Source: a virus
Virus record (IMG/VR): IMGVR_UViG_3300032893_000011
Span: 1-64,000 of that record
Reading direction: 5' to 3' (one strand)
DNA length: 64,000 nucleotides
The translations under genes and the position numbers were made by a program. The notes under the pieces were generated by a model. That model was not told the origin of the DNA, ran no database searches, and worked only from the letters and a program-made list of their open reading frames with translations. Position 1 is the stretch's first letter, and each line of letters begins with the position of its first letter. This document shows positions 12,728 to 35,807 of the stretch, in pieces.

Positions 12728-12823
12728 TCACTTGGTCTTGCGGCCAGTCTTCTTCGGGGTGAACGGCGGCGCCTTCCGGTCCCCGAAGTTCGCCAGCTTG
12801 CCCTTGCTCTTCTTCTTGGCCAT
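12728..12823 (-). CDS. 31-aa Lys-rich basic peptide
   Basis: MAKKKSKGKLANFGDRKAPPFTPKKTGRKTK; TAGGCT -10 box 7 nt upstream of ATG. Confidence 0.6.
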   Translation of the reverse strand: MAKKKSKGKLANFGDRKAPPFTPKKTGRKTK

Positions 12824-14829: not shown

Positions 14830-15073
14830 GCCGCCTCCGATTGGCCTGGATGGAGGCGGGAGGTTCCCGGCGCCGTGTCATAACAGCTCAGTGCCGGCTA
14901 ACCACGGCACGCCGTGTTCGACTGGAGCATGTGACTCCACTTCGACATCGGCTTGCCGCGCTGAATGGTGGGATTGCGTCCCGCGGCCGTGTTGAACACC
15001 GACCGCGACTTGCCCCGACCCCTGCGCCTACGTCTGCGTGCCATGGACCCGATCCTATTGCTGTGGCGTGCGC

Positions 15074-15328
15074 TCACGCCGTGTCATCGGGCCGCGCGGT
15101 CGGCGAGGCCCCGGCATCTGCCTGCAGGGACCTGAGGATGCCGTCCAAACCGGTGCTCTCATCAGAGACCAAGCCCACAAACGCGGCGGAAGGAAATGTG
15201 CAACGCAGCAGCAGCGCCGCCTCCACACCGCCGGGCTTGCGGATCAAATCGCAGTTCATGGTCACCTCCTCAGCCCCGGGCTGATCGAACCAAATCTGGT
15301 TGTTGACGACGATGACCACGTGATTCAC
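15074..15328 (-). CDS. Hypothetical phage protein
   Basis: Coupled to upstream gene (GTGA overlap). Confidence 0.45.
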   Translation of the reverse strand: MNHVVIVVNNQIWFDQPGAEEVTMNCDLIRKPGGVEAALLLRCTFPSAAFVGLVSDESTGLDGILRSLQADAGASPTARPDDTA

Positions 15329-22257: not shown

Positions 22258-22793
22258 TATACCTCGCCGGTGGGCCCGGCTCAGGCAAATCCACCCTGAT
22301 GGCGGCCCTGACCAGCCGATACGATCGGATGCCGTGCTACCGCGACAAACCTCCGCATGATGTGCTCGTCGACCGGGGCACCGGCGCGGCGGTGGGCGCG
22401 GAGATAGGGCGCCGCCGCGCCAGCTTCGGCGGCACCGACGCCCTAGCCTCCACAATCATCAACACCGCCGTCCCATGGGTGGAGTCGAAGCCCTACCCGC
22501 TGATCCTGGCTGAGGGCGCCCGCCTGGCGTGTCAACGATTCCTGCTCGCCGCCACCGCCACCTACGATGTGACGTTGGCGCTGCTCGACCACCCCCAAGC
22601 CGAAGGGTGGCGCGTCGCGCGCTCCCAAGCCAACAACCGGTTCCAAAACGAGGCCTGGGTGCGGGGCCGAATCAGCGCCAGCCGCAACCTCGCCGACAAG
22701 CTCGACGGCCGCGAGCGGATCACGGTCCTGCGCGGACACCCCGACGACCTGCAACCAATCCTGGCTGGACTACTCGCCGATGAGCACCACTGA
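22248..22793 (+). CDS. P-loop nucleotide kinase of base-modification clusters
   Basis: GGPGSGKST, FGGTDAL, AEGARL. Confidence 0.8.
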   Translation: MRLIYLAGGPGSGKSTLMAALTSRYDRMPCYRDKPPHDVLVDRGTGAAVGAEIGRRRASFGGTDALASTIINTAVPWVESKPYPLILAEGARLACQRFLLAATATYDVTLALLDHPQAEGWRVARSQANNRFQNEAWVRGRISASRNLADKLDGRERITVLRGHPDDLQPILAGLLADEHH

Positions 22794-24465
22794 GAAGCAG
22801 CACGCCGTCACCAACCTGACAGCAGCGTGGCCGCCCGAGTCGCGCAACGCGATGCTCGAATACCTGTCCGCGGGCGCGAAACGCAAGATCCTGGCGGGGA
22901 CGTACCGCGACGCCGCGAACCTCGCCCAGGTCATCGACCCCCGCTACGTCGTCACACCGGCGCTGCAACTCATCGCCACGCACATCGAGACGGTGCTGCG
23001 CCGCCCCCGCCACAACCTGCTCATCAACATGCACCCCCAGTCGGGCAAGACTCAGCTGTGCGCCGTCTACGCGCCGCTGCGGGCCCTCATGCTCAACGCC
23101 AACTGCCGCATCATCCTCACCTGCTACGCGGCGTCGCTGGCCGAGGAGTCGTCCCGGCGCTGCCGCGAACTGATCGAGCAGCACGGCACCGGCGTCATCG
23201 ACCCCGTCACGGGCGTCGCCGCCGCCGACAAGCTCGGCTACCGCCTGGCCTCGGGATCCAACCGGGTGAACGCCTGGAAGATCGCGGGCGCCCGCGGCGG
23301 CATGGTCGCCGTCGGGTGGGGCGCCAGCCTCACAGGCAAGCCCGCCGACCTGTTGATCATCGACGACGTGGTCAAGAACCAGATGGAGGCTGACTCCGCC
23401 AACCACCGCCGCAAGATCTCCGAATGGTTCTCCACGGTGGCGCTGACCCGACTATCACCCGACGCATCCATAATCCACATCAGCACCCGCTGGCACCCCG
23501 AGGACCTGGCCGGGCAGATCATCTCCGGGGAGGCCCTGCAGGACGACCGGTTCAAGACGTGGAAACACATCAACATCCCCGCCATCGCCGAACGTGGCAT
23601 CCCCGACGCGCTCGGCCGCCAGCCTGGGGAGGCGATGGAATCCGCGCGCGGCTTCACCAAAGAATCCTTCGAGGCCATCCGCCGCGAGGTCGGGGAGAGG
23701 ACGTGGTACAGCATGTTCCAGGGGGTCCCCAGAAACCCGGCCGGCGGCCTGTTCCTGCGGGCGTGGTTCGAGCCCCGCGCGGTCATAGCCCCCGCCGACC
23801 CGGTGGCCGTCATCGTCGGGGTCGACCCCGCAGACACGGGCCGCGACGACGAGACCGGCATCATCGCCGCCGCCCTCGACCAGGACGGGCGCATAATCCT
23901 CACCGAGGACTGGTCGGGGAAGTTCACCAGCGACCAGTGGGGGCGGCGCGCCGTCACCCTGGCGTTAACGGTCGGGGCCCGCGAGATCTCGTTCGAGGCC
24001 TACAGCATCGCCACCACCTACAAGCAGGTCCTCGAACACGCCTACCGTGCCATCCACGCCGACGCCGCCGCCAAGCACCGCAGCGGCGCCGACCTCACCG
24101 ACATCGAGCGCAAGGCGCTGGGCGAGTTGCCGCCGTTCACGATCCACAAGTGGCGCGGCCCGGCCCGCGTCGACGCGGTCGGGCGCAGCGCCGTCCTGCG
24201 TCAGGCGTTCGAGACACGGCGCGCCCGCACCGTCGAACACAAGCTGGCCGTGTTCGAGGACCAGGCCGCCGACTGGTTCGCCGGGCAGCACTGCCCAGAC
24301 AGGGTCGCCGCCGCGGTCATCGCCCACGACCGGCTCGACAAACTGTCCGGAGGGGCCCGGATGACGATAGCCACCCCGATCAACACCCGCCCCGACCCCG
24401 TGTCGAGATTCAAGACGCCCGCCGCGGTGCAGACGCATCTGGCCCGCCGACTTGGACGCCGGTAA
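22780..24465 (+). CDS. Terminase large subunit
   Basis: MHPQSGKT, LLIIDDVVK, TRWHPEDLAG, VGVDPA, CPDRVAA. Confidence 0.93.
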   Translation: MSTTEKQHAVTNLTAAWPPESRNAMLEYLSAGAKRKILAGTYRDAANLAQVIDPRYVVTPALQLIATHIETVLRRPRHNLLINMHPQSGKTQLCAVYAPLRALMLNANCRIILTCYAASLAEESSRRCRELIEQHGTGVIDPVTGVAAADKLGYRLASGSNRVNAWKIAGARGGMVAVGWGASLTGKPADLLIIDDVVKNQMEADSANHRRKISEWFSTVALTRLSPDASIIHISTRWHPEDLAGQIISGEALQDDRFKTWKHINIPAIAERGIPDALGRQPGEAMESARGFTKESFEAIRREVGERTWYSMFQGVPRNPAGGLFLRAWFEPRAVIAPADPVAVIVGVDPADTGRDDETGIIAAALDQDGRIILTEDWSGKFTSDQWGRRAVTLALTVGAREISFEAYSIATTYKQVLEHAYRAIHADAAAKHRSGADLTDIERKALGELPPFTIHKWRGPARVDAVGRSAVLRQAFETRRARTVEHKLAVFEDQAADWFAGQHCPDRVAAAVIAHDRLDKLSGGARMTIATPINTRPDPVSRFKTPAAVQTHLARRLGRR

Positions 24466-26543: not shown

Positions 26544-26861
26544 ATGACTGCCAAATCATATGTAATCGGTGCTGCCCTGCTCGCCGCGATCAGTGTATCC
26601 GCAACCCCCGCCCAGGCGCAGCCGCTGCCACGCGACTGGGGCTCGATCGCCCAATGCGAATCGGGCGGCAACCCGGCCACCAACACCGGCAACGGCTTCT
26701 ACGGCATGTACCAGATCCAGCAGAGCACATGGGTGGGGGCCGGCGGCCTGCAGTTCGCCGCCCGCGCCGACCTGGCCACACCCGCGCAGCAGACCATCGT
26801 CGCCGACCGGATCATGGCCACCCAAGGCCCGGGCGCCTGGCCGGTGTGCTCTAGGAGGTAG
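26544..26861 (+). CDS. Resuscitation-promoting factor (Rpf) transglycosylase, secreted, stand-alone
   Basis: Signal peptide; WGSIAQCESGGN..NTGNGFYG.YQ...TW...QGPGAWPVC. Confidence 0.92.
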   Translation: MTAKSYVIGAALLAAISVSATPAQAQPLPRDWGSIAQCESGGNPATNTGNGFYGMYQIQQSTWVGAGGLQFAARADLATPAQQTIVADRIMATQGPGAWPVCSRR

Positions 26862-27387
26862 CGAACAGCGACAGCGGCCCGGAGACATCCGCGTCGATGT
26901 CGGCGGCGCTCGCAGCCACCAGGACCGGCCGGACCGTCACGTGGACCGCGAACTCCTCGCCAGCCTCGGCGAGACGTTTCGTGCCGCCCCAATGCACCAC
27001 CTGCGAGTCGTCGGCGATAACCGGGCCGGTGATCGCGTCAAAAATTGCGCGTGCGAGCTTGTCGGCGTCGGGACGCTTCACCGCCTGCGGGGTGCGCCGC
27101 GGCGTCGACTTGGGCCGCGGCAACACGACGTCCAGGTGCACGCTCACCGCGCCGGTCAGCAGCGGCCGCCCCCGCATCGCCACCCGGGCGGCCAGGGCGA
27201 CCCGCTGCCGCCACGGCCCCACCTGCGGGTTGTCCTCCACCAGGTTGACCACGACACGGCCGTTGCGGTCACGCACCGGCTGCCTGAAACGGTCGGTGAC
27301 GACGAACGACCGCTTACTCCCCTGCGGCTGCGCCTTCCCGGGCACGGTGAACCGAATCGGCGGGCCCATGAACCTGACCTCGGTCAC
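26851..27387 (-). CDS. rusA: RusA-family Holliday junction resolvase
   Basis: VPGKAQPQGSKR, RPDADKLARAIFDAIT, DDSQVV. Confidence 0.88.
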   Translation of the reverse strand: MTEVRFMGPPIRFTVPGKAQPQGSKRSFVVTDRFRQPVRDRNGRVVVNLVEDNPQVGPWRQRVALAARVAMRGRPLLTGAVSVHLDVVLPRPKSTPRRTPQAVKRPDADKLARAIFDAITGPVIADDSQVVHWGGTKRLAEAGEEFAVHVTVRPVLVAASAADIDADVSGPLSLFATS

Positions 27388-27416: not shown

Positions 27417-27827
27417 GTGCCCCCCGTGGGACAGACCCTGCTCATCCTGGCCGTCTACGTCCTATCATGCTCACGCGTGACACGGCTGATAAACAGCGAC
27501 GTCATTCTCGACCCCGCCCGGGTGTGGATGGCGCACCGTGCCGCCGCCGCCAAAACCGGGCGCGACGAGGCACTGAGCCACGGCCGCCACCACCACGCCG
27601 AACGGCTCGAACGCGCCACCGCCCGCTGGAATAAGGCGGTCTACTTCGTCGGCTGCCCGTGGTGCGTCGGGTTCTGGATCTGCCTCGCCGCGGCCTACCT
27701 GCCTGTTGCGCTCATCGGATGGCCGTGGTGGGCTGTCGTGCCGGTCGCGCTGTCGGCCAGCCACCTCGTCGGCGTAGCCTCGGCGCTGGACACCGAAGAC
27801 ATGCAGATAGAGGAGGAGAAGCCGTGA
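27417..27827 (+). CDS. DUF1360-like membrane protein
   Basis: RVTRLINSDVI, CPWCVGFW, GGAGG RBS. Confidence 0.75.
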   Translation: MPPVGQTLLILAVYVLSCSRVTRLINSDVILDPARVWMAHRAAAAKTGRDEALSHGRHHHAERLERATARWNKAVYFVGCPWCVGFWICLAAAYLPVALIGWPWWAVVPVALSASHLVGVASALDTEDMQIEEEKP

Positions 27828-28570
27828 CCACACGGGTGGCTGGCAAACTGGGGCGACGCCCGGCACTGCCGCCGGAGCAGAGGTTCGCGATCAAATGGGT
27901 CCACGAATACGGTGCCCTACCGGCACCGGCCTACCCGATAGACGTGTCCGGCGGCATCACCGACTGGGGCATGTACGGCAACGGCCCCGACCCCGACTGC
28001 ACGCTGCGCCCAGACGGCGTCGGGGACTGCTCCTTCGCGGCGCGGATCCACTACCAGATGGCCGTCGCCGCATGGGGCCACGAACACCCGCCCACCGAAA
28101 CCCCCAACCAGCTCGTCGCCGAATACCTCCAATACGACGACGGCATTGACCAGGGCGCCGTCCTCGCGCAGCTGCTGCTGAACTGGTACCAGACAGGCAA
28201 AATTGCGGCGTTCGCCCCCGTGCACCCCGACACGTCCGACGCCGCCCTTCAGGCCTTCCACGGACTCTACGTCGGCGTGAACCTGACACCCGACGCGCAG
28301 GACCTGTTCGCGGCCGGGCAGCCGTGGACCGTGGCCGACGGGCAGCAGCCCGATCCCGCCCTGGGGCACTGCGTCCTGCAGGTCAAAGCCGACGGGCACC
28401 GATTCAACGACTACGTCACATGGGCGGAGGACCAGCCCGCGACGCTGGACTGGTCGGATCTGTGCGTCGAGGAACGCTGGGCCGTCATCCTGCACGAGGA
28501 CACCGTCGCACCCCTCTACATCGACGTGTCTGTGCTGCGCGCCGACATCGACGCCCTCGACGCCGCCTAG
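27824..28570 (+). CDS. Putative papain-like cysteine peptidase
   Basis: GDCSFAA (Cys), GHCV (His), YVTW. Confidence 0.6.
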   Translation: MTTRVAGKLGRRPALPPEQRFAIKWVHEYGALPAPAYPIDVSGGITDWGMYGNGPDPDCTLRPDGVGDCSFAARIHYQMAVAAWGHEHPPTETPNQLVAEYLQYDDGIDQGAVLAQLLLNWYQTGKIAAFAPVHPDTSDAALQAFHGLYVGVNLTPDAQDLFAAGQPWTVADGQQPDPALGHCVLQVKADGHRFNDYVTWAEDQPATLDWSDLCVEERWAVILHEDTVAPLYIDVSVLRADIDALDAA

Positions 28571-28654
28571 GGCTTGCACGCCGCCGCGCTAGGCTGCCGC
28601 CAGCCCCAACAACCAGAAAGTCGAGGCTGGAGCCCCTAGAAAGGGAGGCTGATC

Positions 28655-28834
28655 ATGGCACGTAGGCGAATGGGCGGCAGGCGCCGCCGCGTGGGCACCA
28701 CCGGACACCGGCACCACGCAGGACACACCCACATCGCGATCGCTGTGCACCACAGCACGCACCACCACGCAGCCCGCGCGGTAGGGCGCGGTGTGCGGCG
28801 GCGCGGACGGCGCCGGGCGCGTCGGCTCGTCTAA
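28655..28834 (+). CDS. Protamine-like Arg/His-rich peptide (59 aa)
   Basis: AAAGGGAGG RBS; MARRRMGGRRRR...RRRGRRRARRLV. Confidence 0.7.
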   Translation: MARRRMGGRRRRVGTTGHRHHAGHTHIAIAVHHSTHHHAARAVGRGVRRRGRRRARRLV

Positions 28835-28856
28835 CCCCCGAACCAGGGAAACTGCC

Positions 28857-29141
28857 ATGGCACGACGCAGGCATGGCGTCCACGCCCACGCCGGTGGGGC
28901 ACACGCCCACACCGGCGGGGCGGCGGGACGCATGGGGAGGCGAGCAGGTCGCCGCAGCGCACGCAGAGGCGTCGCACGGCGCAGGGGGCGCACACCCAAA
29001 CTCGGCACCGGCGCCCGATTCCGAAACCTCACCAAACAAGGTCTAAGCCCTCAATTGGCTGCGTGGATTGGAAGACGGAAATTCGGAAAAGCTCGCTACC
29101 AGGCTCTTTCTGCCGCCGGTAGGCGGCGGCGGAGGCGTTAG
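28857..29141 (+). CDS. Arg-rich basic protein (94 aa)
   Basis: MARRRHGVHAHAGGAHA...PKLGTGARF...LAAWIGRRKFGK...RRRRRR. Confidence 0.7.
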   Translation: MARRRHGVHAHAGGAHAHTGGAAGRMGRRAGRRSARRGVARRRGRTPKLGTGARFRNLTKQGLSPQLAAWIGRRKFGKARYQALSAAGRRRRRR

Positions 29142-29752
29142 CGTCCTCTGCGTGAGAGTGCAGCGCACTTTCGGGAGCAGAAACCTTTCCCGATTTCGCA
29201 GACGGGTCGATGATAAGTCGCTCCGCACCGCCTGCAGGTCTGATCAGGCGTTCGGCGAGGTGAAGGTGTGCCTTTTGGCGGAAGATTCCGCCACGCTTCG
29301 TGCTCAATCTGGTGACAGCGTTTACATAACGTTTCGAGGTTCGCCGGGTCACTGTTCCGGCGGTTCCCGTCTTGGTGGTGAATCAACAGGAACCTCGTGC
29401 TGCCGCATCGCTCGCAGGAGTCTTTGAGGTGGCGGCGATAGTGAATGGGAGATCGGCCGTCGACGTACATCGGGTTGTCGACGCCCAGCTGGAATGTCCC
29501 CTTCCGCTCGGCGGATTGCAAAGCGCCAAGACAGGAGCGCGAGCAGGCGCGGGCGGTGTCGATCCGTTTGGGCGAGATCGTGAAGACCGAGCCGCAGTGT
29601 TCACAGGTTTTCGTGGTGTTGGTGCGGTTCCATCCGGCTTGGGTGCCTTTGGCGGTGCAGGACAGGGAGCAGAAGCGTCCGGTGCCACTGCCTTTCCGCC
29701 GTTGGAAGGCGGTTCCGCAGTGCTCGCAGGTATAGGTAATCATGGTCGGCAT
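29138..29752 (-). CDS. HNH endonuclease with repeated CxxC zinc motifs
   Basis: CERCG..IHHQDGNRRNSDPANLETLCKRCH; TAGAAT -10 box 6 nt upstream. Confidence 0.88.
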   Translation of the reverse strand: MPTMITYTCEHCGTAFQRRKGSGTGRFCSLSCTAKGTQAGWNRTNTTKTCEHCGSVFTISPKRIDTARACSRSCLGALQSAERKGTFQLGVDNPMYVDGRSPIHYRRHLKDSCERCGSTRFLLIHHQDGNRRNSDPANLETLCKRCHQIEHEAWRNLPPKGTPSPRRTPDQTCRRCGATYHRPVCEIGKGFCSRKCAALSRRGR

Positions 29753-29796
29753 AGGCCAATTCTAGCGGCGAGGGCAAGCATGGAGGGGCGCTCGCG

Positions 29797-29904
29797 ATGC
29801 GGATGACCATCGACGTGCTGATGATCGCCTCTGCTGTCATAGCCGGTGCGATAATCGGGGCAGCGGCGGCCGTCCTGTGGCCGCGCGAGTGGAGGTGGAT
29901 GTAA
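29797..29904 (+). CDS. Small membrane peptide (35 aa)
   Basis: GGAGG RBS, one hydrophobic helix, abuts next ATG. Confidence 0.45.
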   Translation: MRMTIDVLMIASAVIAGAIIGAAAAVLWPREWRWM

Positions 29905-30033
29905 ATGGGAGGCCGTCCCTCTCGCCAAACCCCGGCGGACCGCCGATTGCGTGAAAACCGGGGCAAGCCGCATCCGATGCCCCAACCGGCGCCGGTGTCG
30001 AAGGAAGTCCGCAGGAAGATGGGACACAAGTAA
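29905..30033 (+). CDS. Small basic peptide (42 aa)
   Basis: GGAGG RBS; MGGRPSRQTPADRRLREN...RRKMGHK; TAATG coupling to next gene. Confidence 0.6.
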   Translation: MGGRPSRQTPADRRLRENRGKPHPMPQPAPVSKEVRRKMGHK

Positions 30034-30179
30034 TGGCCATGATGAAGAAGATCCCGCGGGGGATGATGTCGCAGCCGGCGACGGCGGCGCAGGCGGGTGT
30101 GACCCGCTCGGCGGCATCGGCCGGTAAGTCGGCGGCGAGCACCGCGTCGATGCCCCGCATGCCCCGCAAGAGACCCTGA
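30033..30179 (+). CDS. Small basic peptide (48 aa)
   Basis: MAMMKKIPRG...MPRMPRKRP; coupled start. Confidence 0.55.
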   Translation: MAMMKKIPRGMMSQPATAAQAGVTRSAASAGKSAASTASMPRMPRKRP

Positions 30180-30216
30180 TCAACGGAAGTTCAAACTGCC
30201 AACGAAGGAGTTAGTT

Positions 30217-30408
30217 ATGGCACGTCGACGTGGCAGCCGCGGTGGCGGCCGGGGTCGGGGCGGGTCGAACGCCACGGCAGGACAGTACGGGTCGGGTGGC
30301 ACCCATGCCCAGGTGGCCGGCGGGGCGACCGCGCAGGTGAGCGGACCATCCACGTCGCTGCCCCCGGGTGGGCGGGGTGGCGGGCGCAGGCGCGGCCGTA
30401 GTGGCTAA
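30217..30408 (+). CDS. Arg/Gly-rich peptide (63 aa)
   Basis: AAGGAG RBS; MARRRGSRGGGRGRGG...RRRGRSG. Confidence 0.7.
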   Translation: MARRRGSRGGGRGRGGSNATAGQYGSGGTHAQVAGGATAQVSGPSTSLPPGGRGGGRRRGRSG

Positions 30409-30538
30409 GAGCAAACGCGGCCCATCCGCTGTATGCCCCGGCGGCATGGCCGACGCAGGCATGGACGCGGCAGCCGAAGCAGTGCCCGTGAGGAAGAAGA
30501 AACACCGGAAGAAGGCGGGGCGTCGTCGTGGCGGCTAA
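30401..30538 (+). CDS. Basic peptide (45 aa)
   Basis: GTGGCTAA overlap; MAKSKRG...RKKKHRKKAGRRRGG. Confidence 0.6.
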   Translation: MAKSKRGPSAVCPGGMADAGMDAAAEAVPVRKKKHRKKAGRRRGG

Positions 30539-30671
30539 GAAACGCGCGACTCGCCGCAGAACGTCCACGCGCACCTACTCGGGACGCCGCGGCGCCGTCA
30601 CCTACCAGATCACGGTCGGCCGATCCAGGGTGACGCACCGCCCAGCCCGGCGTCGGGGCCGTCGTGGCTAG
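30528..30671 (+). CDS. Arg-rich peptide (47 aa)
   Basis: Overlapping GTG start; MAAKKRATRRRTSTR...RRRGRRG. Confidence 0.6.
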   Translation: MAAKKRATRRRTSTRTYSGRRGAVTYQITVGRSRVTHRPARRRGRRG

Positions 30672-30855
30672 GCGCCGACGGACCGGGGTGAGCGCACACG
30701 CCGGCGGTGCCCGCGCGTCGGCGAATGAGATGTCCGTGCGGTTCCGCGAGATGGCGTTCCCGCATCCGTTCCCGGTCGGTAAGGCGGGCCGCGCCAGCGG
30801 CGGCGGATACACCCGGGCGGCCCGGTCAGGCCGGGCGCGGAGGCGCCGTGGCTAG
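30664..30855 (+). CDS. Arg-rich peptide (63 aa)
   Basis: GTGGCTAG overlap; MARRRRTGVSAHAGGARASA...RARRRRG. Confidence 0.65.
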   Translation: MARRRRTGVSAHAGGARASANEMSVRFREMAFPHPFPVGKAGRASGGGYTRAARSGRARRRRG

Positions 30856-31050
30856 AAAACGCCGCGCTGGGACCACGGCGCATGCCGGCGGGGCCCACGC
30901 GTCGGCGGGCTACAAGCCGCCCTCGTCAACACCGGCCTATCTGCTCACCGGCGGGCCCCTGCCGGGGACGCGGCGGGCCTCGGGCCGAGCACCACATGCG
31001 GAGAACGCCTCACCAACCCCACCGCGAACGCTGAAAAGGCGGTGCCGTTC
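30848..31050 (+). CDS. Arg-rich peptide, 3' end unresolved (possibly disrupted)
   Basis: GTGGCTAG overlap; MARKRRAGTTAHAGGAHASAG; frame runs on without a stop to 31462. Confidence 0.4.
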
Positions 31051-31052
31051 TG

Positions 31053-31265
31053 ATGAGCATTCCGAAGCCGCCATTGGGTGCGAACCCCATCGCATGTGCA
31101 GTCTGCTTGAACATCGACAACCGCACCCGCAACCCAGCCACCACCATCGTCAACGGCTTCGCAGTCTGCGACAGCCACGCCGAACATCTGACCGGCGAGT
31201 ACACCGACTTCGCCGCGCTGATGCGGCGCATCAAAACCACCACCACCCCCGGAGAACCACTGTGA
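31053..31265 (+). CDS. Small Zn-binding hypothetical protein
   Basis: CAVC...ATTIVNGFAVCDSH. Confidence 0.6.
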   Translation: MSIPKPPLGANPIACAVCLNIDNRTRNPATTIVNGFAVCDSHAEHLTGEYTDFAALMRRIKTTTTPGEPL

Positions 31266-31462
31266 ACCTCGATGAGCTGCTAGTGCAGATCGACACCGCG
31301 GTCTACGAACTTGAGTCTGAGGCTGTCAAGGCCGCCATTGAGGCGGATCGCTTGCGCGACGAGAACGCTGAACTACACCTGCGCGTCGCTGAACTCACCA
31401 CCGAACGCGACGACGCCCGAGCCCGAGCAGCGCACTACGCCCACGACAACCGCATGCTATGA
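31262..31462 (+). CDS. Coiled-coil hypothetical protein
   Basis: GGAG RBS, GTGA and ATGA overlaps. Confidence 0.55.
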   Translation: MNLDELLVQIDTAVYELESEAVKAAIEADRLRDENAELHLRVAELTTERDDARARAAHYAHDNRML

Positions 31463-32820
31463 GAATCGGTTCCCTGTGCTCCGGCGCCGGTGGCCTTGAC
31501 CTCGCCGTTGAAACCGTTTTCAACGCCACAACCGCCTGGCACGCCGAAACCGACCCCGCCGCCGCCAAAGTCCTCACCCACCGCTGGCCTGACACCCCCA
31601 ACCACGGCGACATCACCACAGCCGATTGGAGCACCGTTGAACCCATCGACATCCTCTGCGCGGGATGGCCCTGCCAACCCTGGTCCGCAGCCGGTCAACG
31701 CAGAGGCGCAGCCGACCACCGAGCCATCTGGCCGGCCATCACGCGCGCCGTTCGCCTACTACGACCACGATGGGCGGTGCTGGAAAACGTTCCAGGAATC
31801 TTTGTTCTCGGGGAGTTTGCCCGAACAGTCGGTGACCTGGCCGCGCTCGGGTATGACACGCAATGGGTATGCCTACGAGCTTCCGATGTCAGTGCCCCCC
31901 ACCAGCGCGAACGAGTGTTCATCTTGGCTGCCGACGCCGCGCAGCACGAGAGATGGATCAACGACGGAGACGAGTTACGCCTTGGGCGGCGAACGCGACA
32001 ACAGCAACCGCACACAGGGCGAAGTCCTGCTTCCGACTCCTCGTGCGACGGACGGCACGAAGGGCGGCCCGAACCAGCACGGCTCATCGGGGGACCTGAT
32101 GCTGCCCTCAGCGGTGCTGGACCTGTAAACCTGCTGCCGACACCCCTTGCCCGCGACTTCAAAGGCCACAGCCCCGCTGACATGAACCGCCGCAACCCGA
32201 ATATGTCAGCCATCACAGACCTACTGCCGACACCCGCCGTAAACGACATTGGCGACAACAAGACCATTGAGTGGTGGGACGACTGGACCACCCGCATGAA
32301 AAACCAGCACAGCAACGGCAACGGCCACGGCCCATCACTAGAGATCGAAGTGCAACGCCCACTGCTACCCACGCCGCGTAGCAGCGACTGTTTCGGTGCT
32401 GGCGTCCACGGTGACGGCGGCATGGACCTACGCACCACCGTGCCACTACTCGCCACTCCGAGCACCGCTGACGGTAATGGTGGTCACCTGAACCGATCCG
32501 GTGACCGCAAAAACGAACTACTGCTACCTGGCCAGGCCCGCGACATGGTGACCAGTTGGGGTAAGTATGAGCCCGCGATCCGCCGCTGGGAACAGCACAC
32601 CCGCCCCGCCCCACCACCCACCGAACCCAACACCAAAGGCAACCCCCGCCTATCCGCCGCGTTCAGTGAGTGGATGATGGGCTGGCCCGAAGGCTGGGTC
32701 ACCGCCGTCCCCGGTATCAGCCGCAGCGATGCCCTGCGCGTCATCGGCAACGGCGTCGTGGTTCAACAGACCACCGCAGCCCTGCAATGGCTCCTACACG
32801 CCACCCAGGTGACCGCATGA
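31459..32820 (+). CDS. C5-cytosine DNA methyltransferase
   Basis: SLCSGAGG, GDIT, GWPCQ, ENVPG, RERVF, LLPTP repeats, EWMMGWP, IGNGVV. Confidence 0.9.
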   Translation: MRIGSLCSGAGGLDLAVETVFNATTAWHAETDPAAAKVLTHRWPDTPNHGDITTADWSTVEPIDILCAGWPCQPWSAAGQRRGAADHRAIWPAITRAVRLLRPRWAVLENVPGIFVLGEFARTVGDLAALGYDTQWVCLRASDVSAPHQRERVFILAADAAQHERWINDGDELRLGRRTRQQQPHTGRSPASDSSCDGRHEGRPEPARLIGGPDAALSGAGPVNLLPTPLARDFKGHSPADMNRRNPNMSAITDLLPTPAVNDIGDNKTIEWWDDWTTRMKNQHSNGNGHGPSLEIEVQRPLLPTPRSSDCFGAGVHGDGGMDLRTTVPLLATPSTADGNGGHLNRSGDRKNELLLPGQARDMVTSWGKYEPAIRRWEQHTRPAPPPTEPNTKGNPRLSAAFSEWMMGWPEGWVTAVPGISRSDALRVIGNGVVVQQTTAALQWLLHATQVTA

Positions 32821-33053
32821 CCCCGCGTGTGTACACCCCCGCGACCATCGCCGCTGCCACCGACCGCCGCTGGCTCACCACCAACCACCGCATCAGCCGC
32901 GACTGGATGATCCACGCCAACTGCCGAGGCTGCGACCCCGAACTATGGTTCCCCCACGTCCCGGCGTTACGGCGTGCGCGGCGCCAACGCGGCGGCCAGG
33001 CGGGCACTGAGGCGCCGAAGGGCCTAGGTCGCACGCCGGGTGCCTATCGTTGA
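32817..33053 (+). pseudogene. Truncated WhiB-like regulator
   Basis: DWMIHANCRGCDPELWFP present, but CxxC..C and GVWGG absent. Confidence 0.6.
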
Positions 33054-33056
33054 CGC

Positions 33057-35807
33057 GTGACGGTCCCCGCCCTGCGTGTCGTGCGCCGTCCCAAACGCGC
33101 CCACCGCCACCTGTCCCTGGTGGCCGCCAGCCAACCCATCGAAACCCCGCAACGCATATTCAGGACCACCGTCTCCGGGGTCGTCGCCGACGACGACTGG
33201 CAAACCGAGGCCTGGGACATGTACGACGCCGTCGGCGAGCTCCGCTACTACGTCGGCTGGCGCTCCTCATCGTGCTCACGGGTGCGCCTCATCGCCTCCG
33301 AGATCGACCCCGACACCGGCCGCCCCACCGGCACCTGCGACAACCTCGCCGCCGCCCAAGTCGTCAACGGCATCGCCGGTGGGCACCTCGGCCAAACCCA
33401 GCTCATCAAACGCGTCGTCGAATGCCTCACCGTGCCCGGAGAAGTGTGGGTGGGCATCATCCAACCCGGCGACGAGCCCGCGCAACGCTGGCTCGCCCTG
33501 TCGAAGGACGAGATCTTCAGAAACGGCGCCGGGGCGGAGATCGAGCTGCCCGACGGGTCGCGCCACACCCTGTCCATGCCCCGCGACTCGCTGATCCGCG
33601 TCTGGATCCCCCGAGCCCGGCGGGCGTCGCAGCCCGACTCGCCGGTCCGGGCCTGCCTCGGGTCGCTGCACGAGATACACCGCACCACGAAAACCATAGC
33701 CAACGCCTCCAAGTCCCGCCTCATCGGCAACGGCATCGTGTTCGTGCCGCAGGAGATGTCCCTGCCGCCGATGAACACCCCCCTGGCCGCCAACCAGCTC
33801 GGGCCGCCCACCCCGACGATGGACGGCACGTCGGCGGTGCAGCAGCTGCAGGAGCTGCTGTGGCAGGTGGCGCAGACGGCCTACGACGACGAAGACTCGA
33901 TGGCTGCCCTGATACCGATGTTCGCCACCGTGCCCGGCGACCAGATCAAAAACGTGCAGCACCTGCAGTTCGAGAACAACATCACCGACGTCGCGATCAA
34001 GACCCGCAACGACGCAATCGCCAGGCTCGCGATGGGATTGGACGTGAGCCCAGAAAGGCTCCTCGGTTTGGGGCGAAGCTCAAACCATTGGTGCAAAGAC
34101 GACCAGACTGAAATTCTGACACAACGCGGCTGGTTACGGCAGGATCAGCTGCGAATCGGCGACATGGCGCTGACGCTACAGCAAAGCGGGTTGAGCGAGT
34201 GGCAGCCAGTGCTGGACATCTACCGTGCTGACGTGATTGATGAGCCGATGCTGTCAATGGAGGCGGCGTCTCATTCATCGTTGTCCACGGCAGGGCATCG
34301 CTGGCTGGTGACTCACGTTAGCAACGGGAAATGGCGATGGACGACCAGCGGTCAGGGTTTCGCCAAGGCGGACCGCATACCCGCCGCTGCAAGATGTGTG
34401 TCGTTACCTTCTGGGCCGAAGTACTCGGATAGTTTCGTTCGGCTCGCAGCTGCTTACATGTCGGACGGCTCGCGGTTGCGCTATGAGTCTGGAACAGAAT
34501 TCGTTCGTATCGTCAAGTTCGATGCCGATGAAATCATTGCTTTGCGAGCGGTGTGCCGTGAAGTGTTCGGGCGTGACGTCTCAGAGCGCCATCACCCGAC
34601 CAGAACACGCGCCGGGCTGGCTTTCGTGCTGCACGCCGATGAGTCACAAGCGCTGTTTGACATCACCAGCGAGCATAAGGCGCTCAAACCCGAGTTCATT
34701 CTCACGTTAACGGAAGCGCAGCTGCACCTGTTCCTTGATGCGTTGATTGAGCTTGGCGACGGTGTCGCTTTATCGCATGGTGCTCGGACCTTCTTCCAGG
34801 TGGAGCCGTCACGACTGGACGCCATCGAGATGGCAGCGATCCTCGCTGGCTATCGCTGCACCCGCGGGCAACGTAATCAGCAGACCGGTTTCGGCACGAC
34901 TCCGCTCCACTGGCTACGAGCTGGAACGGCTCGTAAATGGTTTGCTCCCTATGTGGCCGAAAAGTCCTGGCAACGTTACTCCGGGGTCGTCTGGTGTCCA
35001 ACCACCGAGAACGGGACGTGGTTCGCGCGGCGAGATGGAAAGGTCTGCGTCAGCGGAAATTCGGCCTGGCAGTTAGCTGACGAGGACGTGCAGCTGCACA
35101 TTTGCCCCGTGATGGAGTTGCTGTGCGCGGCGTTCAACGAGCGCATCGTCGGCCCTGTGTTTCAGAGGATGGGCATCGACCCCACCCGCTACATGCTGTG
35201 GTACGACGCCACCGGGCTGACCGCAGACCCCGACAAAACCAACAACGCCACAGCGGCGTTCGACCGGGGGGCGATCACCGCCGACGCGTTGCGCTCCTAC
35301 CTGCAGCTCGGCGACGACACCGGCTACGACCTGTCCACCCTCGAAGGGTGGAAGGTGTGGGCGCGCGACCACGTCAGCAAGGACCCCACCCTGCTGTCGG
35401 TCCCGCAGCTCGTCGCGCTGCTGGGCCCCGACGTGGTGAAGGTGACCACACCGCCCGCCCCGCCACCCGAGCAGCCCGCAGTGCCCGCCGGGCAGCGCCC
35501 GCCCGCGCTGCCGTCCGCGAAACCCAAACCCGCAGCCCCCGCGCAGCAGGAGCCGCAAACCGAGGAGGAGGAGGCGGCCCCGGCCGCACAGGTCCGCGAC
35601 GACGTGCACATGGGCATCGTGGACCTGATGGTGTCACGGGCACTCGGCCTCGCGTCGCGGCGGCGTCGCGGCACCGGCGACCGGTGGGACGAAGCCCTCG
35701 AAGACGAAGTGCTGGGTCTGCTGAACATCGACGGCGAGGACGTGCGCGCGGCGGTTCGCCGCAGCGTGCGCCACAAACTCGCCGCGCGCAACGGGGAAGG
35801 AAGCTGA
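33057..35807 (+). CDS. Portal protein containing an intein
   Basis: WQTEAWDMYDAVGELRYYVGW, SKSRLIGNG, AIARLAMGLDVSPERLLG..SNHW|SAWQ; position before capsid genes. Confidence 0.88.
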   Translation: MTVPALRVVRRPKRAHRHLSLVAASQPIETPQRIFRTTVSGVVADDDWQTEAWDMYDAVGELRYYVGWRSSSCSRVRLIASEIDPDTGRPTGTCDNLAAAQVVNGIAGGHLGQTQLIKRVVECLTVPGEVWVGIIQPGDEPAQRWLALSKDEIFRNGAGAEIELPDGSRHTLSMPRDSLIRVWIPRARRASQPDSPVRACLGSLHEIHRTTKTIANASKSRLIGNGIVFVPQEMSLPPMNTPLAANQLGPPTPTMDGTSAVQQLQELLWQVAQTAYDDEDSMAALIPMFATVPGDQIKNVQHLQFENNITDVAIKTRNDAIARLAMGLDVSPERLLGLGRSSNHWCKDDQTEILTQRGWLRQDQLRIGDMALTLQQSGLSEWQPVLDIYRADVIDEPMLSMEAASHSSLSTAGHRWLVTHVSNGKWRWTTSGQGFAKADRIPAAARCVSLPSGPKYSDSFVRLAAAYMSDGSRLRYESGTEFVRIVKFDADEIIALRAVCREVFGRDVSERHHPTRTRAGLAFVLHADESQALFDITSEHKALKPEFILTLTEAQLHLFLDALIELGDGVALSHGARTFFQVEPSRLDAIEMAAILAGYRCTRGQRNQQTGFGTTPLHWLRAGTARKWFAPYVAEKSWQRYSGVVWCPTTENGTWFARRDGKVCVSGNSAWQLADEDVQLHICPVMELLCAAFNERIVGPVFQRMGIDPTRYMLWYDATGLTADPDKTNNATAAFDRGAITADALRSYLQLGDDTGYDLSTLEGWKVWARDHVSKDPTLLSVPQLVALLGPDVVKVTTPPAPPPEQPAVPAGQRPPALPSAKPKPAAPAQQEPQTEEEEAAPAAQVRDDVHMGIVDLMVSRALGLASRRRRGTGDRWDEALEDEVLGLLNIDGEDVRAAVRRSVRHKLAARNGEGS
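34092..35060 (+). mobile_element. Intein (323 aa) in portal, with in-frame LAGLIDADG-like remnant
   Basis: Starts CKDDQTEILTQRGW, block B TAGHRW, ends VWCPTTENGTWFARRDGKVCVSGN/S; helices LAAAYMSDGS and FLDALIELGDG; lower GC than flanks. Confidence 0.9.

Follow-up and report, generated by a model that had tools for sequence, protein, structure and literature searches.

A putative cassette of very small, hyper-basic protein genes between the terminase and portal genes of an actinophage

The DNA analyzed here (the window) comprises the first 64 kb of the 113,740-bp IMG/VR virus record IMGVR_UViG_3300032893_000011, which has a GC content of 69%. Between the large terminase gene (22780-24465) and the portal gene (33057-35807), positions 28655-31050 carry a row of tiny, strongly basic open reading frames (ORFs), hereafter the array, which very probably represents a real multi-gene cassette. 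A first-pass annotation of the sequence had described nine ORFs of 42-94 amino acids (aa) at this position, and all nine start codons are present at the coordinates it gave. Eight of these are closed + strand ORFs within 28655-30855 (59, 94, 42, 48, 63, 45, 47, and 63 aa), whereas the frame of the ninth stays open past 31050 to 31462. The proteins encoded in a second (126-kb) assembly of the phage are identical. The ORFs are listed below, where GC1 and GC3 denote the GC fractions at the first and third codon positions and dG the Shine-Dalgarno (SD) duplex energy. Homologues were sought in library, protein-collection, and ESM Atlas searches.

ORF1, 28655-28834, + strand: 59 aa, MARRR..., Arg/His-rich, net charge +18; SD GGGAGG with dG -12.9, in the top 0.7% of positions; called gene in one public assembly; no homologue found.
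ORF2, 28857-29141, + strand: 94 aa, MARRR...; an N-terminal module and a conserved, predicted three-helix basic domain.
35-aa ORF, 29797-29904, + strand: MRMTIDVLMIASAVIAGAIIGAAAAVLWPREWRWM; hydrophobic, with a single transmembrane-like segment; opens the second run of the array; SD dG -9.8; called gene in public assemblies.
ORF3, 29905-30033, + strand: 42 aa, MGGRP...; the strongest SD of the array, dG -15.9; member of the MGG[KR]PSRGTxAD[KR]RL family.
ORF4, 30033-30179, + strand: 48 aa, MAMMKK..., net charge +9; GC3 0.90 vs GC1 0.53 (coding-like); called gene.
ORF5, 30217-30408, + strand: 63 aa, MARRR...; RGG-type Arg/Gly boxes at both ends; first in the overlap chain; SD GAAGGAG with dG -9.1; no homologue found.
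ORF6, 30401-30538, + strand: 45 aa, (M)AKSKR; GTG start within GTGGCTAA; weak match to PHROG 3286, E 0.0065.
ORF7, 30528-30671, + strand: 47 aa, (M)AAKKR; GTG start within GTGGCGGCTAA; net charge +17; SD dG -11.3; no ESM Atlas relative.
ORF8, 30664-30855, + strand: 63 aa, (M)ARRRR; GTG start within GTGGCTAG; GC3 0.84; N-terminal module in common with ORF2 and ORF9.
ORF9, 30848-31052 (frame open to 31462), + strand: (M)ARKRR; GTG start within GTGGCTAG; N-terminal module present; no stop of its own.

The ORFs resemble each other chiefly at their ends and in their composition. As the first-pass annotation had stated, MARRR or MA(A)K starts and RRRG-like tails can be read directly in them: seven of the nine begin with M-A-(A)-[RK], and the C-terminal tails include RRRGRSG, GRRRGG, RRRGRRG, RARRRRG, and GRRRRRR. 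Net charges of the predicted products range from +9 to +29, and their isoelectric points are at least 11.4. They lack Trp and acidic patches, and Cys, Asp, and Glu are almost absent. Off-frame Arg ORFs elsewhere in the genome are, unlike the array ORFs, rich in Trp, Cys, and Pro. The 35-aa ORF, which was absent from the earlier list, is joined to ORF3 through TAAATG.

The downstream half of the array is organized as a chain. ORF5-6-7-8-9 are joined by four junctions (GTGGCTAA, GTGGCGGCTAA, GTGGCTAG, and GTGGCTAG), in agreement with the earlier description of five genes chained by GTGGC(GGC)TAA/TAG. In this junction, GTGGC(GGC)TA[AG], the same bases read as (R/S)-G-stop in one frame and as Met-Ala-(Ala)-Lys/Arg in the next. 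Only five copies of the motif occur on the + strand genome-wide, four of which lie within the array, and six of the ten M-A-(A)-[RK]3 starts of the whole 113.7-kb genome are likewise found there. Among 2000 dinucleotide-preserving shuffles, 5 yielded a five-member chain, counting ORFs no shorter than 40 aa and overlaps no longer than 11 nucleotides (nt) (p ~0.0025). The chain and the start motif are non-random. The ribosome-binding sites, several of which had been called strong, differ in quality: the SD duplex energies of ORF1, ORF3, ORF5, ORF7, ORF9, and the 35-aa ORF rank in the top 0.1-6% of all ATG/GTG positions, whereas those of ORF2, ORF6, and ORF8 are weak. Outside the array, the sole M-A-R-R-R start of plausible length belongs to a small basic ORF beginning MARRRRRRGRGKSR... 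at window positions 14898-15077 on the - strand, with an internal start at 15044 and 48 aa from its ATG. Another small ORF on that strand (12728-12823), the Lys-rich 31-aa MAKKKSKGKLANFGDRKAPPFTPKKTGRKTK, has no Pfam match and is probably another real micro-protein gene, because Lys codons are unexpected at 70% GC.

Several other readings of the chained region were considered. A single frameshifted long gene was rejected on the grounds that the same junction recurs four times, each time with a start codon, and a minus-strand gene was rejected as unsupported, the minus-strand ORFs at 30215-30574 and 30405-30812 translating into junk-like sequences rich in Trp, Cys, Pro, and Ser. The repeated junction (CGT)GTGGCTAR might instead be a DNA or RNA element in its own right, such as an iteron or a protein-binding site, with the ORFs as by-products. 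Its four copies within 450 bp, spaced by 127, 136, and 184 bp, would suit such an element, but the motif is short and non-palindromic, and it is always placed so that one frame ends in Gly-stop where the next opens with Met-Ala-Lys/Arg. Moreover, the ATG-started ORF1, ORF2, and ORF5 have the M-A-R start without the motif. A search of 28000-31600 (E up to 1) found no Rfam family, and no notable promoter or terminator signal explaining the array was seen. We regard this account as extremely improbable.

ORF2 provides the firmest anchor for the array. Its residues 41-94 matched 84 representative clusters at E<1e-3 in a phmmer search, with a best E-value of 2.7e-10. The protein starts with a disordered N-terminal module, MARRRHGVHAHAGGAHAH..., and continues as KLGTGARF...AAWIGRRKFGKARYQAL..GRRRRRR, in which the invariant G, R, F, A, G, and G columns of the conserved family block (alignment A2, KLGSGxRF..L...SPALAAWIGRKKYGKxKFxxL..xGRRR) are kept. 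A hidden Markov model (HMM) of the family detects ORF2 at E 1.7e-24 as its sole match in the genome. In the AlphaFold2 model, the first 45 residues are disordered and helices are predicted at 53-60, 65-76, and 78-93, with a confidence score (pLDDT) of ~90. The family is encoded at at least 391 IMG/VR loci on contigs of 27-70% GC, and its members, of 51-85 aa, adjoin major capsid, virion structural, terminase, or portal genes. ORF2 shares with them the match to the profile of the ~50-residue domain, the small size, and the location in a late or virion module. In podovirus-like contigs (L034, L037, L039, L079, and L098), the ORF2-type gene is found downstream of a major capsid and a virion structural gene, amid other small K/R-rich genes; its neighbor in high-GC contigs is the terminase or the portal gene. 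ESM Atlas neighbors of ORF2 are viral hypothetical proteins only, and BFVD matches of the domain are likewise confined to uncharacterized proteins of uncultured phages. No entry for the family was found by sequence in Pfam, PHROGs, NCBIfam, or PDB, and an ORF2 search of the JGI metagenomes gave no match. The same was true of a tblastn search with ORF2 and two family members against 50,697 GenBank phages, for which low-complexity masking is a possible cause.

Four of the podovirus-like metagenomic contigs have K/R-rich gene runs between their capsid and tail genes (L079:4478-8412, L037:3507-5348, L034:5213-7748, and L098:3854-7669). These runs consist of small and mid-sized genes with a K+R fraction of 0.22-0.39, including the ORF2-type gene, and several of the genes match PHROGs of unknown function (10346, 31838, and 14910).

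ORF3 belongs to a second family, in which the N-terminus MGG[KR]P[SN]RGTxAD[KR]RLxxN leads into a basic tail. The seven relatives collected (L049 and L106-L111) are 32-133 aa long and come from contigs of 39-69% GC, and all seven genes have good SD sites. An HMM built from these relatives, with ORF3 left out, matches ORF3 residues 1-21 at E 8.6e-10, starting from the initiator Met. ORF3 is the only six-frame match of this HMM, and the residues beyond the search pattern (AD[KR]RLxxN) also agree. The ORF3-type genes of L049, L107, and the window end in ...G[GH]K-stop and overlap the next gene through TAATG. As for genomic position, the gene lies between the MuF-like gene and the scaffold and major capsid genes in L107, after the major capsid gene in L108, and after a Neck1-type gene in L109. 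In L049, the ORF2-type and ORF3-type families both occur within one structural module. Homology thus identifies ORF2 and ORF3 as real genes. Two high-GC viral contigs encode fusions of the MGGKPSRGT motif to a DUF6582-like C-terminal domain (L109:4001-4381, E 2e-5; L110:4001-4402, E 8e-6), just under the Pfam cut-off; on the strength of these fusions, the motif behaves as a portable N-terminal module.

A different N-terminal module links ORF2 to the end of the chain. ORF2, ORF8, and ORF9 share 18 residues of the form M-A-R-[RK]-R-x-(x)-G-[VT]-x-A-H-A-G-G-A-[HR]-A, and the AHAGGA[HR]A core, which had been noticed in three ORFs before, occurs in these three and nowhere else in the six frames. 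Pairwise identities of the module are 13/19 (ORF2/ORF8), 13/19, and 14/20 residues (ORF8/ORF9). Identical codons number 3, 4, and 8 in the pairwise comparisons, and synonymous differences 10, 9, and 6 (3 and 10, respectively, for ORF2/ORF8). Nucleotide differences concentrate at third positions (p 0.016-0.04), and amino-acid identity drops to 3-8 of 17-19 in shifted frames. This pattern indicates that the shared module has been kept at the peptide level. The module is contiguous and in frame with the verified domain of ORF2, and a start codon precedes it in all three genes; translation of ORF2, ORF8, and ORF9 from these starts would be the parsimonious reading. A search of IMG/VR with the module found no relative. 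It may serve as a targeting tag.

The array was initially taken for a paralogous family, a view that the sequences do not bear out. ORF2 and ORF3 fall into different families, and only ORF2, ORF8, and ORF9 have the module in common. The six members without it share just the M-A-[RK][RK]R start, and those other than ORF2, ORF3, ORF8, and ORF9 have in common only this start and an Arg-Gly tail. No paralogue was detectable for ORF1 or ORF4-7, and no array member belongs to a family in Pfam, PHROG, or NCBIfam, save for the weak match of ORF6 to a PHROG of unknown function. By sequence comparison, the members are therefore not one paralogous family, but appear to comprise two different conserved families plus a heterogeneous rest.

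The end of the array is irregular. The ORF9 frame contains no stop at 31050, the TGA at 31051-31053 belonging to the frame of ORF8. It is open for 204 codons to 31462, running across a 70-aa gene and into the frame of a coiled-coil gene (31262-31462). From 31053 onward, the GC3 coding signal is carried by the 70-aa gene's own frame. A TGATG at 31051-31055, which could couple an upstream gene to the 70-aa gene, lies in a frame without a start codon. The arrangement suggests a frameshift in ORF9, either genuine or from assembly, and ORF9 may be a paralogue that is decaying or has been frameshifted, or else its coding region may overlap that of the following gene.

The genes that surround the array, in the order in which they occur, are as follows.

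Large terminase (TerL), 22780-24465: Pfam Terminase_6N.
RusA, 26851-27387, - strand.
DUF1360 membrane-protein gene, 27417-27827: PHROG 781.
248-aa gene, 27824-28570, + strand: predicted papain-fold cysteine peptidase-like protein, directly 5' of the array.
HNH homing-type endonuclease, 29138-29752, - strand: Pfam HNH; PHROG HNH endonuclease, E 3.5e-20; divides the array into two runs.
70-aa Cys/His-containing gene, 31053-31265, + strand: closes the array; net charge 0, not basic; clear GC3 periodicity; recorded as a called gene.
Coiled-coil gene, 31262-31462, + strand.
C5 cytosine methylase, 31459-32820.
Small WhiB-like gene, 32817-33053, + strand: PHROG 10802, E 2e-4; directly 5' of the portal gene.
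Portal, 33057-35807: PHROG 776, E 5e-208.

The position of the array between terminase and portal genes, as first annotated, is thus correct. TerL is 55-59% identical to the terminases of Gordonia phage Evaa and Mycobacterium cluster-B-type phages, whose gene order is terminase, reverse-strand resolvase, DUF1360-type membrane protein, portal, and MuF-like protein. The same backbone is found in the phage studied here, with ~5.2 kb of extra DNA between the DUF1360 and portal genes. This insertion contains the 248-aa gene, small ORFs, the reverse-strand HNH endonuclease, further small ORFs, the 70-aa gene, the coiled-coil gene, the C5 cytosine methylase, and the WhiB-like gene. Because the TerL relatives run from the DUF1360 gene to the portal gene without an insert, the array site is a lineage-specific insertion, and the array itself is part of this moron-like segment, outside the conserved head core. 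In a TerL search of IMG/VR, the best relatives were at most 61% identical, and none had an insertion between the DUF1360 and portal genes. No match was obtained in a TerL search of GTDB genomes, by megablast against phages and plasmids, or in single-protein IMG/VR scans with the 248-aa and 70-aa neighbors. Four large high-GC viral records that encode a homologue of the 248-aa protein proved to be unrelated phages without the ORF2 family.

The 248-aa protein was modeled by AlphaFold2 with a pLDDT of 91.7. The top Foldseek match of this model is xylellain (3OIS; E 1e-5, TM ~0.6), followed by cathepsins and Der p 1. Cys69 and His182 are invariant across 25 homologues; in the model, Cys69 directly precedes a helix (70-86) and His182 lies in a strand (181-189). 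More than 300 homologues at 55-63% identity are encoded on viral contigs and actinobacterial chromosomes, and the protein has no Pfam or PHROG match. The structural model accordingly agrees with the earlier designation of this neighbor as papain-like and predicts a cysteine peptidase of the papain fold (clan CA-like), which, to judge from the sequence searches, represents an undescribed peptidase-like family. The further proposal that the peptidase processes the array products fared less well. According to this idea, the peptides are precursors cut at a Gly/Ala motif, in the manner of adenain and the adenovirus core proteins or of double-glycine leaders; the confident papain fold, the invariant Cys and His residues, and the recurrence of AHAGG|A in ORF2, ORF8, and ORF9 speak for it. 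However, seven IMG/VR loci with a homologue of the 248-aa gene have no basic-ORF array adjoining it downstream. A regular-expression scan of the array for (M/I/L)XGG-X or (M/I/L)XGX-G sites returned one LTGGP in ORF9, a chance match, and none in the other ORFs. Nor do the peptides share a cleavage motif of another type, and most members lack AHAGGA. The fold is that of clan CA; the clan CE adenain is not among the Foldseek matches listed, and a C39 peptidase domain (PCAT1) appears at rank 48 with E 0.09. Processing by the neighboring peptidase is consequently highly unlikely.

Taken together, the favored reading, to which we assign a probability of roughly 0.5, is that the array encodes relay-translated, nucleic-acid-binding polycations that would most likely act on the phage genome at packaging. 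The array would be a cassette of at least eight genes for very small, hyper-basic, mostly disordered proteins in the head module of an actinophage. In the proposed mechanism, a ribosome that ends at TAA or TAG would restart at a GTG 5-8 nt upstream, within GTGGC(GGC)TAR, or at TAATG or TAAATG, and the G-rich codons of the upstream Arg-Gly tail could act as an SD-like site. Such translational coupling, which the overlaps suggest, would yield roughly co-ordinated amounts of the members, expressed along with the head genes. The products would then bind nucleic acid electrostatically. As their likeliest target, the DNA of the phage itself would be bound while it is packaged or afterward, the products serving as virion cargo or charge neutralizers. 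Nucleic-acid binding by the products is, on balance, probable, while their packaging in the virion is a more tentative proposition, somewhat doubtful at present. Virion-associated polycations are nonetheless the best reading, because members of both conserved families are encoded within the head, neck, or tail gene modules of phages that are unrelated. For ORF1 and ORF4-7, the chain statistics, the start motif, the SD sites, and the composition make translation appear likely.

Several observations weigh against this interpretation. Across 28650-29140 and 30200-31050, GC3 periodicity is flat in the frame plot except at ORF4 (0.90) and ORF8 (0.84), and the searches described above found no homologue of ORF1 or ORF4-8; ORF8 and ORF4, compared with 5.8 billion proteins, had none beyond ORF4 itself. 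ORF9 lacks its own stop. G-rich Arg/Gly codons mimic SD sites through composition alone, which inflates the energy measure. In the shared module, the antisense frame that shares third positions retains 13/19 identity for ORF8/ORF9, as against 7-8/17 for comparisons with ORF2, so that the peptide-level test is strong only for the pairs with ORF2. The ORF2-family domain has no informative fold match in Foldseek or VIA-align (best Z 4.0). Finally, the cassette sits in a variable insertion with morons (HNH, methylase, and WhiB-like genes), and since the TerL relatives pass from the DUF1360 gene straight to the portal gene, the head-module position is weak evidence for a structural role.

Some of these points bear on whether most of the array is coding at all. 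Conceivably, the genes are limited to ORF2, ORF3, and perhaps ORF4, with ORF1 and ORF5-9 as chance Arg/Gly frames or decayed duplicates in a spacer of 72% GC; the shared junction would then be a remnant of tandem duplication with no functional signal for coupling. Spurious Arg-rich ORFs are very common in the genome, and ORF1 and ORF5-9 combine a flat GC3 with a lack of detected homologues, the stop of ORF9 having already been lost. Most of the ORFs were also skipped by gene callers. The first-pass annotation had likewise reported most of them as missing from the ORF track, which fits the protein collection: the called genes recorded there include ORF1, ORF4, the 35-aa ORF, and the 70-aa and 248-aa genes, whereas ORF2, ORF3, ORF5, and ORF8 are absent. 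However, the callers skipped the demonstrably real ORF2 and ORF3 too; absence from gene calls is therefore uninformative on the reality of the array ORFs. Composition has a similar limit. The Arg codons CGC and CGG account for 59% in the array vs 81% in core genes, and the verified ORF2 shares this relaxed codon usage, so a weak GC3 is no argument against the other ORFs. Because ORF2 is as atypical as the rest, GC3 and codon usage do not discriminate, and homology is decisive. Against chance frames stand the five-ORF chain, the strong clustering of starts and junctions in the array, the peptide conservation of the ORF2/8/9 module with mostly synonymous changes, the difference in composition from off-frame ORFs, and the strong SD sites at ORF1, ORF5, and ORF7. 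On this evidence, we judge a largely spurious array to be quite unlikely.

The main rival to the favored reading accepts that the genes are real but has their products act in the infected cell, as Arg-rich or RGG-type RNA/DNA binders in host takeover, counter-defense, or regulation. Candidate targets would be host nucleic acids, ribosomes, or nucleases directed against modified DNA. Such a role would suit the setting of the cassette, a variable moron-like insertion that also encodes an HNH endonuclease, a C5 methylase, and a WhiB-like regulator. The RGG-like boxes of ORF5 agree with it as well, as does the diversity of the members, which are fast-evolving orphans of the kind often found at counter-defense loci. 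In T4, an anti-restriction function is known for the internal protein IPI* (PMC3012670). The two conserved families, however, are embedded in virion modules of many unrelated phages, and the Pfam, PHROG, and NCBIfam scans gave no pointer to a specific target. A role in the infected cell thus seems rather unlikely.

Under a more specific and speculative version of the packaging interpretation, the products would be phage 'protamines': polycationic, disordered micro-proteins that a relay of termination and reinitiation would supply in fixed proportions, some with an N-terminal capsid-targeting tag. They would enter the head of a tailed actinophage along with its genome, possibly a modified one, and neutralize its charge or pass into the cell with the DNA. 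We consider this version unlikely as it stands. If it were true, the ORF2-type proteins (at least 391 viral contigs) and the MGGKPSRGT-type proteins would be widespread, unrecognized virion DNA-associated proteins of tailed phages. According to the usual view, tailed phages pack their DNA naked, along with polyamines, metal ions, and a few specialized internal proteins; rows of hyper-basic micro-proteins, encoded within or next to head modules, would bring a protein constituent into this picture. Apart from function, the two small families are common in viral metagenomes and absent from Pfam, PHROGs, NCBIfam, and PDB. Standard gene callers miss real genes of this type, as illustrated by ORF2 and ORF3, which have clear homologues yet are uncalled. 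In the GTGGCTAR junction, the same dozen bases would encode the tail of one peptide, stop its translation, bind the ribosome, and start the next gene, an arrangement that is compact and testable. No publication describing arrays of this kind in tailed phages turned up in the literature searches. What appears to be new here is the two undescribed protein families; small basic proteins associated with phage virion modules are already known as a kind.

Known systems resemble the array in different respects. The N proteins of lambda and P22 are short, disordered, Arg-rich, and nucleic-acid-binding, a property that the array products would share. Unlike the multi-gene array in the late head region, they are encoded by single early genes and act at nut sites, and the Rfam search of 28000-31600 (E up to 1) found no boxB-like hairpins at the array. 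The adenovirus proteins pVII and pre-Mu, together with adenain, offer a parallel in that small Arg-rich, protamine-like proteins of a double-stranded DNA virus are accompanied by a nearby cysteine peptidase gene. In contrast, the peptidase-like neighbor of the array is predicted to have a xylellain-like papain fold of clan CA, whereas adenain belongs to clan CE. The (M/I/L)XGG-X sites are not shared, the virus is tailed, and peptidase homologues occur elsewhere without arrays. T7 gp6.7 and gp7.3 are small basic virion proteins that are encoded among structural genes, present in particles, and ejected into the cell. The array products are similarly very small, basic, and encoded amid structural genes, but gp6.7 and gp7.3 are products of single genes, are Lys-rich, and show no sequence similarity to them. 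The crAss001 cargo proteins were rejected as an analogue, being folded proteins of 60-277 kDa (PMC10172136).

The internal proteins of T4 are a diverse set of which ~1000 molecules are packaged, and they have only an N-terminal capsid-targeting sequence in common (PMC3012670). The same paper describes contacts with DNA phosphates and, for at least one of the proteins, a role against the restriction of modified DNA (PMC3012670); modified DNA is itself a feature of T4. The array proteins differ in their smaller size (5-10 kDa), their far higher basicity, and their richness in Arg where the T4 proteins are rich in Lys, and the module is present in only three of the nine. No prohead-protease site was identified in the array. 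Homology of the array to IPI, IPII, or IPIII was not found, with no informative PHROG or Pfam match. In its overall design, the T4 set nevertheless appears to be the closest described analogue of the array: IPI, IPII, and IPIII, like the array products, are otherwise unrelated small proteins that are encoded together at a variable locus, some with only a short common N-terminus.

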